The notes: generated by a model from the sequence alone, not told the origin. A stretch of 63,595 nucleotides of DNA, filler included, from a bacterium (GCA_040757115.1; 6 parts of 6 records of this genome joined end to end with filler, not necessarily neighbours in it), one strand, 5' to 3'. Shown: positions 6,620 to 57,296, numbered from the whole stretch's first letter. Numbers and translations are program-made.

Positions 6620-6873
6620 NNNNNNNNNNNNNNNNNNNNNNNNNNNNNNNNNNNNNNNNNNNNTTAATTAATTAANNNNNNNNNNNNNNNNNNNNNNNNN
6701 NNNNNNNNNNNNNNNNNNNATTATCTCAGTAAGTAGATTTTCTTGATATTCTTCTCTGATATCTCCATATCCCCTTTATCCCCTTATCCCCCTTCTTATA
6801 CTAACTACGATCAAAATATTCCTATTTCACAGGTCGAAAAATTTTAAAAATATAAAAAAATATAAAAAAGTAC

Positions 6874-8361: not shown

Positions 8362-8994
8362 ATGAGTAAAAAATTGAAGGGGTGGAAAGGTTATATAATA
8401 GCGTTGTTCTTAATAACAATTGCAATTACCAGTAAGGCAGATATTGCTTTGGCCAAGGGTGCAATATTAAAATCAGACCATATTGAGCAGGCTGGAGAAG
8501 GTGAGATTGTCACTGGTAAAATAAGGGTCACAGGAGATGTATACCCATATTTGAAAATAACAATTGTTGACCCTAATATTACCTGGGATATTAATGGTGG
8601 AACAGGAGAAGCGGCGAGTGCAGGACCGTTGGTAATGGTAAAGGCAAATTCTTTATTTAATATTGGTGTAGGTGATGTTGATAACTTAATAAATACAGCA
8701 TATCCCCCGGACTACAATACAGGCGCAAATATATTAGAAACATGGTTTGCAACGGGGGATAACGAAATTGATAATCCATTTGAGGAAATATTACCACCCA
8801 ATAAGGCTATCATCGCAGGAAGTAATGACCCTACTAATCCTAATCACGGGGATTTAGAATGGAATATTGCACCAACCTATATCTCGTATGTGAGTAAATA
8901 TCTCTGGAATAAAATTAGGGTTGAAGGAAATGATGAAGCAGGTCATTATTTAGACCCAGATGGATATATTATCATCATCTATGGACATATTTAA
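8362..8994 (+). CDS. Secreted beta-rich protein, pilin/WxL-like paralogue 2
   Basis: Signal peptide; KYLWNK and AGHYLD...GHI C-terminus. Confidence 0.7.
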   Translation: MSKKLKGWKGYIIALFLITIAITSKADIALAKGAILKSDHIEQAGEGEIVTGKIRVTGDVYPYLKITIVDPNITWDINGGTGEAASAGPLVMVKANSLFNIGVGDVDNLINTAYPPDYNTGANILETWFATGDNEIDNPFEEILPPNKAIIAGSNDPTNPNHGDLEWNIAPTYISYVSKYLWNKIRVEGNDEAGHYLDPDGYIIIIYGHI

Positions 8995-9824: not shown

Positions 9825-10459
9825 TAACCGTTCACCGCACAGACACAGAGACGCAGAGAAAAAATTAAAGTAACCGTTCAGCCACAGAGGCACAGAGTTC
9901 ACAGAGAATTAGAGAAATTAGCCACAAATGGACACGCATTATAGCACTTATTAATCGAAATTTGACATAGATAGGGCTCTGAAATTCCAAATCACAAATT
10001 CCAAATTCCATTTAGTGAATTAGTGAATTAAGCGAATTAGCGAATTAGTAAAATCTAATCTCTAATTCACTAATCTCTAATTCGCTTTTTGGTATGTGGA
10101 ATTTGGTGCTTGGGATTTGGGATTTTTTTTACTTATCCACTCTGAGTAAAGTTTTGACTAATAACTGCTATATTCCCTCTGTGTTCTCTGTGACTCTGTG
10201 GTTATATCCTGAACGGTTACCATCCTCAAAACTTCACTCCCTAAATTTTTCCTAAGCCTTACCTATGTCAGTGATAGTGTCCGTGTCAGTGAAGAAACTC
10301 CTTCAACTCATCCAACACTTCCAACTCTTCCTACTCTTTCAACTCTTCCAGCAGAAGTATAGGTAGGTCTCCCAAGCCTTCATTCTTCTGCAATTTCTGC
10401 CCGTTTTAGTCTGAAGTTTGATGTCTATAGTCTACTGTCTGAATCACAGGAACGCTTAC
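9824..10459. mobile_element. Compound nest of IS66-like MITEs (inner 9870-10220)
   Basis: GTAACCGTTCA at 9824 and 9870; CTGAACGGTTAC ending 10220; GAACGCTTAC ending 10459. Confidence 0.75.
9942..10170. mobile_element. IS630/Tc1-like MITE (TAGCACTTATTAATCGAAA ends, TA duplication)
   Basis: Flanked by TA on both sides; copies at 13420-13694 and 39162-39391. Confidence 0.8.
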
Positions 10460-13314: not shown

Positions 13315-13419
13315 NNNNNNNNNNNNNNNNNNNNNNNNNNNNNNNNNNNNNNNNNNNNTTAATTAATTAANNNNNNNNNNNNNNNNNNNNNNNNNNNNNN
13401 NNNNNNNNNNNNNNCTTTA

Positions 13420-39036: not shown

Positions 39037-39719
39037 TAATAAAATATTAACGGCTCCAGCATAAAAGAAGTTTTTGCGAAACAAAAAAGGAGTAACCGTT
39101 CAGGTAGTCTTTTACCGCAGAGACGCAGAGAAACAGAGAAGACATAGAAATAAAGTAACTATAGCAGTTATTAGTCAAAACTTTACTCAGAGTGAATAAG
39201 TAAAAAAATCCCAAATCCCAAGCACCAAATCTCAAATAAGCACCAAATTCCACATACCAAAAAGCGAATTAGAGATTAGTGAATTAGAGATTAGATTTTA
39301 CTAATTCGCTTAATTCACTAAATGGAATTTGGAATTTGTGATTTGGAATTTCATAGCCATATCTATGTCAAATTTCGATTAATAAGTGCTATATTCAGCC
39401 ACTGATTAGCACGGATAGAAAAATAAAATCAGTGTTTCATCTGTGTCCATCTCTGGCTGAATAGTTACCAATAGATTTTAATTTTTTTCTCTGCCTCTGT
39501 TATGTAAAGTGTCAAGCTTTTTTTATTTTTTTATTTAAGAAAAAAGTCTACGACTTATCTCTACAACTTTCTTTGCTTTCTCTTTTTAGCCTGTCGAGGT
39601 TGTCGGGGCACCCGCTTGCGGGTCGTCCTCGAGCAGGGGTTTTCTCTAAAGCAGAGGCAAAGGGGTTAGATGATTGACAACTTCTTTTATTAACCCCTTT
39701 GGAGAAAAGAGAAAACCTA

Positions 39720-39990
39720 AATAAAAGTCCTTAAAGATATATCTGTTGCAGTGAACAGTCGCGAAAAATGAATCTTGTACCTCCTTTTGTTCTTTGATAG
39801 ATATAAAAGGTAACCGTAACTTTCTATTATACGTGGCAACCTGAGTTTTTATAAAACAGCAGGTTCACACTCATTGATTCTTTCGTTTTGATTTTTTTGA
39901 GTCTCTTTCTGTGCTCGAGTATTACTCTTTCACGGACCGAGGCGTCTCAAAAAAATACGTTACCAATTACAATTGATACCTTATCAAAGA
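39720..39990 (-). ncRNA. Candidate bridge/seekRNA of the IS1111 element
   Basis: Structured non-coding region; stem ATTTTTTTGAG/CTCAAAAAAAT (39891-39956) closes a large internal loop; boundaries approximate. Confidence 0.5.
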
Positions 39991-39997
39991 CCACTAT

Positions 39998-41068
39998 TTA
40001 AAAATGTGGAATATACTTTCTTTCTTCTTTTAAGATACGATAGATAATCGCAGTTAATTTACGAGCAACAGCAGTAATGGCTTTCTTTTTAGCAATCTCT
40101 GAATGATGTCTGTTTTTGATTCGGCAATAAAACTGATAGAGTCTGATGTCTTTTCGAATGGCAACCCAGGCTGCTTCTATAAGTAGAAACCGTAATACCT
40201 TGTCGCCTAAATGAGTAATAGAGCCTCTATTAACATCATCACCAGTAGAGTTTTCTCTTGGCACAAGACCAACAAAGGAGGCTAATTCTCGTGGGTCTTT
40301 TAAGTTCTTGGGATCACCTATGTTACCGAGTAAAGTAACTGCCACAACAAATCCTATTCCAGGAATTGATTGCAAAAAACTGAGGTAATTCTTAATGTTT
40401 TCATGGCTGTTACAAAAACTTCTTAGAACACGGTGAATGGTTAATAGTTGTTTTCGGGCATAGAAAAGGTCATCTATCAACATATCTAAACAATCTCGAA
40501 TAGCTGGCTGACAAGGAATCTTTTTGATTTCATTGATGTGGTTACAAGACCATTTTTGATAAGGGTCTTTGATATAACCATCCAGATGAGCAAACAAAAG
40601 TAAAGCTTTGATGCGTTGTTGAGTAACCTTACGCAAAGAAGCATAGTTCTGGCGAATTTTAACTAAATGACGAAGTTCTCGCCATTCATCTTGAGGTACT
40701 CTTATAGATTTTAAACTCCCAGCTTTAAGTAGCGCCGTTAGTTTTACTGAATCTATACGGTTAGTCTTTACTCGTTCATTCGGTGCTTTAGGGATAGATA
40801 GTGGTGGCACAACCAGACAAGGAATATTTTTCTGTGTCAGATAGTCATAAAGATGATATCCTGTAGGACCTGCTTCGTAAGCACAGATAATCTGTTTGTT
40901 AGAGTAGTTGTTTTGCAGGTAATTATAAAAATATTGTGGTTGTGCTGGTATTGTTTTTGTCCGTTTCATAATATTGTGGTCCTGAATGGTAAAAGAAAAA
41001 CTCTTTTTATCCACATCTAGCCCAATGAATAGTTCATAATCTTTCGGTAAATATGTTGTTTGTGTCAT
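39998..41068 (-). CDS. IS110 family transposase/recombinase
   Basis: IGLDVDK, YEAGPTG, KTNRIDS, SIPGIG, GLVPRENSTG, AVARKL. Confidence 0.95.
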   Translation of the reverse strand: MTQTTYLPKDYELFIGLDVDKKSFSFTIQDHNIMKRTKTIPAQPQYFYNYLQNNYSNKQIICAYEAGPTGYHLYDYLTQKNIPCLVVPPLSIPKAPNERVKTNRIDSVKLTALLKAGSLKSIRVPQDEWRELRHLVKIRQNYASLRKVTQQRIKALLLFAHLDGYIKDPYQKWSCNHINEIKKIPCQPAIRDCLDMLIDDLFYARKQLLTIHRVLRSFCNSHENIKNYLSFLQSIPGIGFVVAVTLLGNIGDPKNLKDPRELASFVGLVPRENSTGDDVNRGSITHLGDKVLRFLLIEAAWVAIRKDIRLYQFYCRIKNRHHSEIAKKKAITAVARKLTAIIYRILKEERKYIPHF

Positions 41069-41180
41069 AAGTTTGTCCTCCTTATTTTAGTCAGTTAATA
41101 CTTTTTGTATAGTATACCACAAAATCTTTCGCAGGTCAAACTTGACACTTTATCATATCATCTCTGCGGTGAACAGTTAC

Positions 41181-41277
41181 TGCTTTTTGCATTTTGCTCT
41201 TTGGAGAAAATTGATAAAAATAGAGGTTTTAAATACCCGTTTAAAAACTACAGTTTCCTGGTTTTGCAGAACCCTAA
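41181..41277 (+). mobile_element. Right end of the four-helix-bundle element family
   Basis: Matches 51967-52062. Confidence 0.8.
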
Positions 41278-43650: not shown

Positions 43651-43750
43651 NNNNNNNNNNNNNNNNNNNNNNNNNNNNNNNNNNNNNNNNNNNNTTAATT
43701 AATTAANNNNNNNNNNNNNNNNNNNNNNNNNNNNNNNNNNNNNNNNNNNN

Positions 43751-50305: not shown

Positions 50306-50440
50306 TATTTCGTATGCCTTGCCATTGGCAAGTAATGTCTNNNNNNNNNNNNNNNNNNNNNNNNNNNNNNNNNNNNNNNNNNNNTTAATTAATTAANNNN
50401 NNNNNNNNNNNNNNNNNNNNNNNNNNNNNNNNNNNNNNNN

Positions 50441-56993: not shown

Positions 56994-57296
56994 NNNNNNN
57001 NNNNNNNNNNNNNNNNNNNNNNNNNNNNNNNNNNNNNTTAATTAATTAANNNNNNNNNNNNNNNNNNNNNNNNNNNNNNNNNNNNNNNNNNNNCTACCAA
57101 TATATCGTTCCTACGGAACTGATTGATTTGTCTATCTATTTCTACCGATATTATGTTCCTAACGGAACGATTATTCTCCTGCCTTATTTATGGGTATTAT
57201 CCTATGTAGACTTCCAGTTAATAACCGCTATATTTTTCGTAGGGCGACCCTTTAGGGTTGCTTCTTGCTTGCCTTACAATCTTGATGCTTTTACTA

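Follow-up and report, generated by a model that had tools for sequence, protein, structure and literature searches.

The insertion sequence and its ends

The stretch of DNA analysed, hereafter referred to as the window (63,595 nt), consists of several contigs joined by paired runs of N (6620-6719, 13315-13414, 43651-43750, 50341-50440 and 56994-57093), and only window positions 13415-43650 are contiguous with the element described here. The element lies on C124, one of the 462 contigs of a draft genome of 4.3 Mb with 36.8% G+C. The host phylum is small, and among the 25 species genomes covered just one partial relative was found. The following features were located, positions being those of the window.

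39499..41161, minus strand: insertion sequence proper, IS1111 group, 1663 bp; the end blocks of relatives stop at these limits and the flanks diverge beyond them
39998..41068, minus strand: transposase/recombinase gene, intact, 356 aa (Pfam domains and PDB matches)
41162..41163, minus strand: core dinucleotide at the left-end junction, the same as at the right-end junction
39497..39498, minus strand: core dinucleotide at the right-end junction, AG in the sense of the IS; identical at both junctions
41141..41151, minus strand: 11-bp subterminal inverted repeat on the left, set 10 nt in from the end; it repeats 39506-39516 perfectly in inverted orientation
39506..39516, minus strand: 11-bp subterminal inverted repeat on the right, set 7 nt in from the end; contains the -35 box of the junction promoter
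41152..41161, minus strand: left terminal extension with TGn and TATGAT (-10 box, 41152-41157), a block conserved in relatives
41111..41139, minus strand: resident promoter-like site before the transposase gene, TTGACC-17-TATACT with TG, 10/12; a consensus match only

The preliminary description had placed an IS110/IS1111-superfamily element at this locus, and the Pfam domains, the inverted repeats and the IS1111-type organization bear this out. The product of the gene matched PF01548 (E 1.3e-15) and PF02371 (E 8.6e-23), and combines the DEDD RuvC-like N-terminal domain with the Transposase_20 C-terminal domain that are expected of the superfamily. Its C-terminal domain also matched the solved transposases of ISCro4 (E 2.2e-11) and IS621 (E 1.1e-08), and 4154 homologues were recovered at an E value of 1e-20 or below. 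The C-terminal motif of the IS1111 group, GL-P----S(t)G (PMC11187229), fits residues 267-276, with G267, P270, S274 and G276 invariant across 38 homologues. The length of 356 aa falls outside the 330-350 aa given for IS1111 transposases, which is a descriptive range for the family and no strict criterion (PMC11187229), and close homologues have 353 to 359 aa. Judged from its sequence, the protein is a member of this family.

Genome and metagenome scans with the alignment of 38 homologues yielded 159 related loci, 16 of which share the same 11-mer inverted repeat. When the ends of 16 relatives were aligned, each repeat proved to be bordered on its outer side by a conserved block, of 10 nt at the left and 7 nt at the right, followed by the core dinucleotide, beyond which the flanks were unrelated to each other. 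The core is AG in most relatives, and AA at both ends together in three of them (L016, L106 and L017). The conserved end blocks and the shared dinucleotide, with unrelated flanks beyond, thus delimit the IS to 39499-41161, flanked at either end by the 2-nt core. The insertion had been recognized at the right place to within 1-2 nt, and two letters of the quoted left-flank 8-mer, the last ones, belong to the IS.

The layout is that of the IS1111 group in two further respects. Subterminal inverted repeats in this group measure 7-17 bp according to the available text of PMC11208160, in accordance with the perfect 11-bp pair, and the longer non-coding region lies downstream of the transposase gene (about 497-499 nt, versus 93 nt upstream). 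The distance from stop codon to right end in relatives is shorter than in the window copy, ranging from 188 to 381 nt.

When the ends were joined, TTGACA (39510-39515) was followed by a spacer of 17 nt (11 + 2 + 4) and by TATGAT (41152-41157) preceded by TGn, both boxes being part of blocks conserved among relatives. A junction promoter had been proposed; it does form, and its TTGACA was correctly named, while the -10 box is TATGAT at 17 nt and not the TAAAGT originally chosen, which lies 5 nt further on (spacing, 22). Reconstitution of a promoter at the circle junction is described for this family in the available text of PMC11208160.

A predicted structured RNA downstream of the transposase gene

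The first ~200 nt after the stop codon are shared with relatives, and contain the following segments.

39806..39960, minus strand: predicted bridge (seek) RNA, in which the target-binding loop comes before the donor-binding one (133.9 bits with covariance model R1)
39946..39955, minus strand: basal helix P1, 5' strand, pairing with 39892-39901; 10 pairs, all compensatory in a 55-row alignment
39892..39901, minus strand: basal helix P1, 3' strand, pairing with 39946-39955
39938..39943, minus strand: scaffold motif GCCTCG, G[CA]CTCG in 23/23 best rows and in 46/55 rows
39901..39906, minus strand: scaffold motif AGAGAC, in 22/23 best rows
39916..39928, minus strand: apical hairpin P2 of the target-binding loop, with compensatory changes in 3/4 pairs
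39833..39870, minus strand: apical stem-loop of the donor-binding loop, 8 pairs, 6 of them compensatory, 99.2% paired

In a MAFFT alignment of 18 sequences, a fixed frame surrounds four variable blocks. Its consensus fold, obtained with RNAalifold, comprised the 10-bp P1 helix, a CUC/GAG helix and the donor-loop stem, with compensatory changes in 12/21 pairs. The CUC of the first scaffold hexamer faces the GAG of the second in this 3-bp helix, which is present in 18/18 sequences. The covariance model R1 was built from the RNAalifold structure, the small apical hairpin being added by hand, and a search with it gave 55 matches in 71 sources. Every match lay just 3' of a transposase gene and on the same strand, in agreement with the proposal that an RNA follows the gene.

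In the 55-row alignment, 94.8% of the cells were paired, compared to 71.5% in shuffles, and 20/25 pairs showed compensatory changes; this alignment was fitted to R1 and is biased toward the structure, but the RNAalifold prediction on the MAFFT alignment is independent of the model and agrees with it. None of the shuffles (0/500) matched the observed pairing values, and controls with slid partners reached 30-52%. The single-sequence fold of 39806-39960 gave a z score of -2.53. A search of Rfam at E values up to 10 returned no relevant family, its matches being at chance level. Helices supported by covariation are thus found next to the gene, and in the available text of PMC11208160 a bridge RNA is predicted in the right end of 93.0% of IS1111 elements. 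In the single-sequence fold of the window copy, the two target-guide segments described below (39907-39937) can also pair with each other, which would close the target loop; no conservation of this pairing was seen.

The preliminary description had drawn a large internal loop at this position, which is correct in outline, and had taken two 8-mers in it (39936-39943 and 39901-39908) for guides that read the left flank and the repeat consensus, respectively. The letters themselves were accurate enough, since the former 8-mer differs from the plus-strand flank at 39493-39500 in 1/8 positions (identity, 7/8) and the latter, with 6/8 identities, stands as quoted. Moreover, matches of at least 7/8 to the flank 8-mer occur twice in the non-coding region, versus 0.18 expected from 500 shuffles, of which 1.6% reached 2, and the left-flank match is a little more than chance. 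Against this, the first six letters of one 8-mer and the last six of the other are the two scaffold motifs, kept in 23/23 and 22/23 best relatives with unrelated targets. Three letters of each pair with one another in the conserved 3-bp helix, and two of the supposed left-flank letters are IS letters. Given that these hexamers are constant among relatives with different targets, they cannot specify the target, and it is hardly credible that the 8-mers act as guides. Resemblance between a loop and a flank can evidently mislead where the flank is a simple repeat.

Between the conserved RNA and the right end, this lineage carries one more segment.

39530..39794, minus strand: ~265 nt extra in the non-coding region of this lineage; the homology of relatives stops at ~39794 and resumes at ~39530

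Two hairpins are present in this segment, a G+C-rich one and a long one with an internal loop. The latter (~39640-39720) might be considered the real target-binding loop or an additional one, since its asymmetric internal loop contains 7 nt that match the window copy at its right junction, and the hairpin also carries the other 7/8 match to the left flank, and the hairpin is present in two transposase-less copies of the element (see below). It lies, however, within the ~265 nt that relatives lack, is devoid of scaffold motifs, has loop letters that do not track the different flanks of these two copies, and is found twice more on contig C16, away from any transposase. A guiding role for this hairpin is therefore very unlikely, and the target-binding loop is placed in the conserved RNA.

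As to contig C16, its two copies (8747-8913 and 10101-10267) are 90% identical to 39570-39739, and each immediately precedes a fragment similar to Rhs/YD-repeat proteins in their conserved end. Beside them lie a degenerate sequence resembling the inverted repeat of the IS and a short motif that relatives keep near the right end. The C16 copies may be IS remnants duplicated with the cassette.

Predicted guide segments of the target and donor loops

Four segments of the RNA were found to follow the DNA that they would read.

39929..39937, minus strand: V1, predicted guide for the right target, which complements the top strand on the right side of the core (own-site match, n=20)
39907..39915, minus strand: V2, predicted left-target guide in the sense of the top strand, 5 nt + core AG + 2 nt (own-site match, n=17)
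39875..39878, minus strand: predicted right-donor guide, pairing with the first bases of the IS left end; its third base follows the fourth base of the left end
39824..39830, minus strand: predicted left-donor guide and core, in the sense of the last 5 nt of the right end plus core; exact in 19/22 loci

For the target loop, V1 matched the right flank of its own element in 6.90/9 positions on average, and the flanks of other elements in 4.25 (sd, 1.23; n=20; 0/20000 permutations). The five letters of V2 that precede its core copy matched the own left flank in 3.35/5 positions, compared to 1.86 for the others (n=17; 0/20000 permutations). The loci are kin and several have related targets, so these permutation counts overstate independence. 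The V1 score was the best of four offsets, controls being treated alike, as the register shifts by up to 2 nt among relatives. L097 was omitted from the right-flank test because it has no right end fitting the motif, as were L015 and L109, whose right flanks are cut by contig ends, and the left-end match of L019 was discarded as spurious, since its core is wrong. Guides and target flanks thus covary at the level of the family, the right side of the window copy being at chance. The loop that had been pointed out is indeed the target-binding one, as V1 and V2 lie inside it and track the flanks. Covariation between loop and target, which had been suggested as a check, was observed for V1 and V2 and not for the quoted 8-mers, which are constant.

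A similar behaviour was observed in the donor loop. Where the left end can be trusted and has G as its fourth base, which is so in three loci (L105, L095 and L016), the third base of the right-donor guide is always C; it is U in the other loci, with one U.G case (L018). The exact matches of the left-donor guide (19/22) include all three loci with a variant end or core, so that guides and IS ends covary as well. For its part, the window copy has a single change in its donor guide, U for C at 39826, with which wobble pairing to the bottom strand is still possible.

Comparison of the relatives identifies the guide letters as the variable 9-mers (V1 and V2) directly inside the scaffold hexamers. 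The rule that separates scaffold from guide in this clade is a clear one, and should be useful for annotation and for the choice of reprogrammable positions.

We propose that a DEDD recombinase would be guided by a bridge/seek RNA produced from the minus-strand non-coding region 3' of its gene. Both loops appear to be built on one plan: to the right of the core the DNA top strand is complemented by a segment of the 5' strand, and to its left it is reproduced by a segment of the 3' strand, which then runs on into the core. The first loop (39892-39955) would read the target and the second (~39816-39885) the joined ends of the IS. Recombination at the shared AG would then insert the IS where two 8-nt units of the CAGAG type adjoin in a repeat with hundreds of copies, and in the excised circle the joined ends would form a near-consensus promoter facing the recombinase gene. 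Within this scheme, the structure of the RNA, the covariation of guides with flanks and IS ends across relatives, and the shared target repeat are established at the level of sequence comparison; we infer transcription, binding of the RNA to the protein, a circular intermediate and current activity. That the element is an RNA-guided insertion sequence of the IS1111 group, with its bridge/seek RNA 3' of the gene, is given a probability of about 0.85.

This organization largely reproduces that of the IS1111 seekRNA elements ISEc11, ISPa11, ISKpn4 and ISPst6 (Siddiquee et al. 2024, PMC11187229), with which the window element shares the DEDD transposase, subterminal inverted repeats, site-specific insertion, a long 3' non-coding region, and short RNA segments that match both target strands. 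The order of the segments also coincides, as the top-strand match of IS1111 seekRNAs is 5' of the bottom-strand match (PMC11187229). Compared to these elements as they are described, the window protein is longer (356 versus 330-350 aa) and its non-coding region has ~265 extra nt.

Similarities with the bridge RNA of IS621 and the IS110 group (Durrant et al. 2024, PMC11208160; 8wt6 and others) were also evident as far as the available text of that report goes. Both RNAs have target and donor internal loops, and IS621, whose transposase is homologous to the window one in the C-terminal domain (E 1.1e-08), likewise has a core dinucleotide common to target and donor and a circle-junction promoter. 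Unlike in IS621, as presented in the same text (PMC11208160), the window RNA lies 3' and not 5' of the gene, the order of the strand matches within each loop is reversed, the core is AG instead of CT, and the inverted repeats are long.

The window element thus belongs to the IS1111 group as an ordinary and apparently intact member, which has a canonical bridge RNA and homes to an abundant repeat. The RNA-guided recombinases gain with it a well-resolved example from nature, in a clade of uncultivated groundwater and sediment bacteria, where comparison of about twenty elements in different targets lets the two loops, the scaffold and the core be read directly.

The target repeat and the transposase-less copies

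The insertion site and the other copies of the element were located as follows.

41164..41182, minus strand: left half of the target, repeat head and first CAGAG unit (19-mer search)
39478..39496, minus strand: right half of the target, with the last of the CAGAG units and the A-rich tail, continuing as in unoccupied copies
C405:5509-5981 and C335:1184-1673: mini-elements without transposase, ~450 bp, with both ends, inverted repeats and the full bridge RNA
L176 (G008:C106) 1-270: mini-element of a sister species, with both IS ends and the full bridge RNA
C418:10948-11111: left-end fragment of the IS, 164 bp, 98% identical, in the same repeat

The 19-mer from the left flank gave 428 matches with at most 4 substitutions in the 4.3-Mb genome. 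Unoccupied copies of the repeat consist of a head, two or three 8-nt units of the CAGAG type and an A-rich tail. The preliminary description had called it a MITE associated with GxxExxY; it is treated here as a dispersed repeat, characterised by its abundance and its modular make-up. The window element separates the two units of a two-unit copy, and the C335 mini-element lies between the second and the third unit, while that of C405 occupies a variant copy of the repeat. Likewise, the C418 fragment and the sister-species mini-element follow ...CAG-AG or ...AAG-AG of the same repeat. No readable copy was thus found in an unrelated target, since the window copy, the two mini-elements, the fragment and the sister-species mini-element are all in the repeat, and in this respect the idea of a guide programmed against it was not refuted. 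Relatives from other organisms also reside in short-unit repeats (L018, L096, L102 and L105).

REP and other short extragenic repeats were reportedly described as IS targets by Tobes and Pareja in 2006. Compared to REP-type targets, the repeat found here has a conserved head, after which 8-nt units of the CAGAG type follow in variable number. A closer parallel is offered by ISPpu9 of Pseudomonas putida and its ssr9 module (PMC12288879), an IS110-family element that, in the available text of that report, lies in repetitive extragenic sequences and has separate transposase-less sub-modules, as is the case here. The same text describes its small RNA as dispensable for transposition. Compared with what is given there for ISPpu9 (PMC12288879), the transposase-less copies of the genome studied here retain both IS ends and the whole bridge RNA.

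The claim that the guide is programmed against the abundant repeat turned out to be only half true for the window copy, whose V1 matched the right flank of its own site in 4/9 positions, that is, at the level of chance (cross mean, 4.25). The V1 segments of the mini-elements matched their own right flanks better, with 5/9 in C405 and 6/9 in C335. The V2 segment of the window copy matched in 3/5 positions, with a mismatch beside the core, at 39911, where the mini-elements have the matching base. The right site of the mini-element type (core plus the first eight guide letters; core + TTCGCAGA) occurs 29 times in the genome, and among the 20 of these sites that were listed, 19 sit within the repeat family. 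The site corresponding to the right guide of the window copy occurs 4 times, one of them in a repeat-like context (C381) that is similar to the site of the metagenomic relative L019. The imperfect fit of the window copy to its own site is possibly due to drift after insertion, to the use of RNA from another copy or to tolerance of half-matched sites. The last option has a precedent in IS621, for which the available part of a preprint (10.64898/2026.08.31.748434) reports that partial, half-match fits are enough for insertion.

Drift would also be expected if the window copy were a decaying relic that no longer transposes. The presence of just one full copy in the genome, the 4/9 fit of the right guide, the left-guide mismatch beside the core, the change in the donor guide and the truncation of the C418 fragment would all be in accordance with this view. 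Nevertheless, the 356-aa reading frame is open and has kept the positions at which 38 homologues do not vary, both inverted repeats are free of mismatches, wobble pairing would accommodate the change in the donor guide, and half-matches suffice for insertion of IS621 in the available part of the preprint (10.64898/2026.08.31.748434). Decay is regarded as possible but rather doubtful, and the single transposase-bearing copy may still be active.

In contigs from 2 DNA sequencing runs of one groundwater study, the differences found at 39911 and 39826 were the mini-element versions. The depth of the transposase contig (315.9), compared to that of the unique flanks (293-323), gave a weak hint of one copy per genome, given that contig depth is no copy number. 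A candidate empty allele of the site was rejected, as the contigs that skip over the IS have sides of 20-22 nt with extra letters between them, and match other copies of the repeat.

A division of labour could be imagined between the one recombinase gene and several transposase-less carriers of guides, in which the mini-elements would be mobilised in trans and might even lend their RNA to the recombinase, thereby setting the choice of target. This suggestion arises because the right guide of the only transposase-bearing copy misfits its own site (4/9), and because the ~450-bp mini-elements, which have retained the two ends and a complete bridge RNA, carry a different right guide. We consider it improbable; if true, the choice of target would be set by a small population of RNA-only elements, and not by the autonomous copy. 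Together with the mini-elements, the poor match of the autonomous copy to its site raises a small question about bridge RNAs acting in trans. In the sister species, no transposase was found with this protein query.

Some other observations were made on the copies and on the repeat. The C418 fragment is cut inside the transposase gene, beside the end of another open reading frame. The head of the repeat precedes differing families of units (CAGAG type and CACGAAG type) and several alternative tails, and some copies of the repeat are arranged head to head as long palindromes (C78 and C111). In L096 (~600-660), the right end of a second related IS copy is separated by 14 nt from the left end of the first, which comes after it; the two copies occupy neighbouring units of a short tandem repeat.
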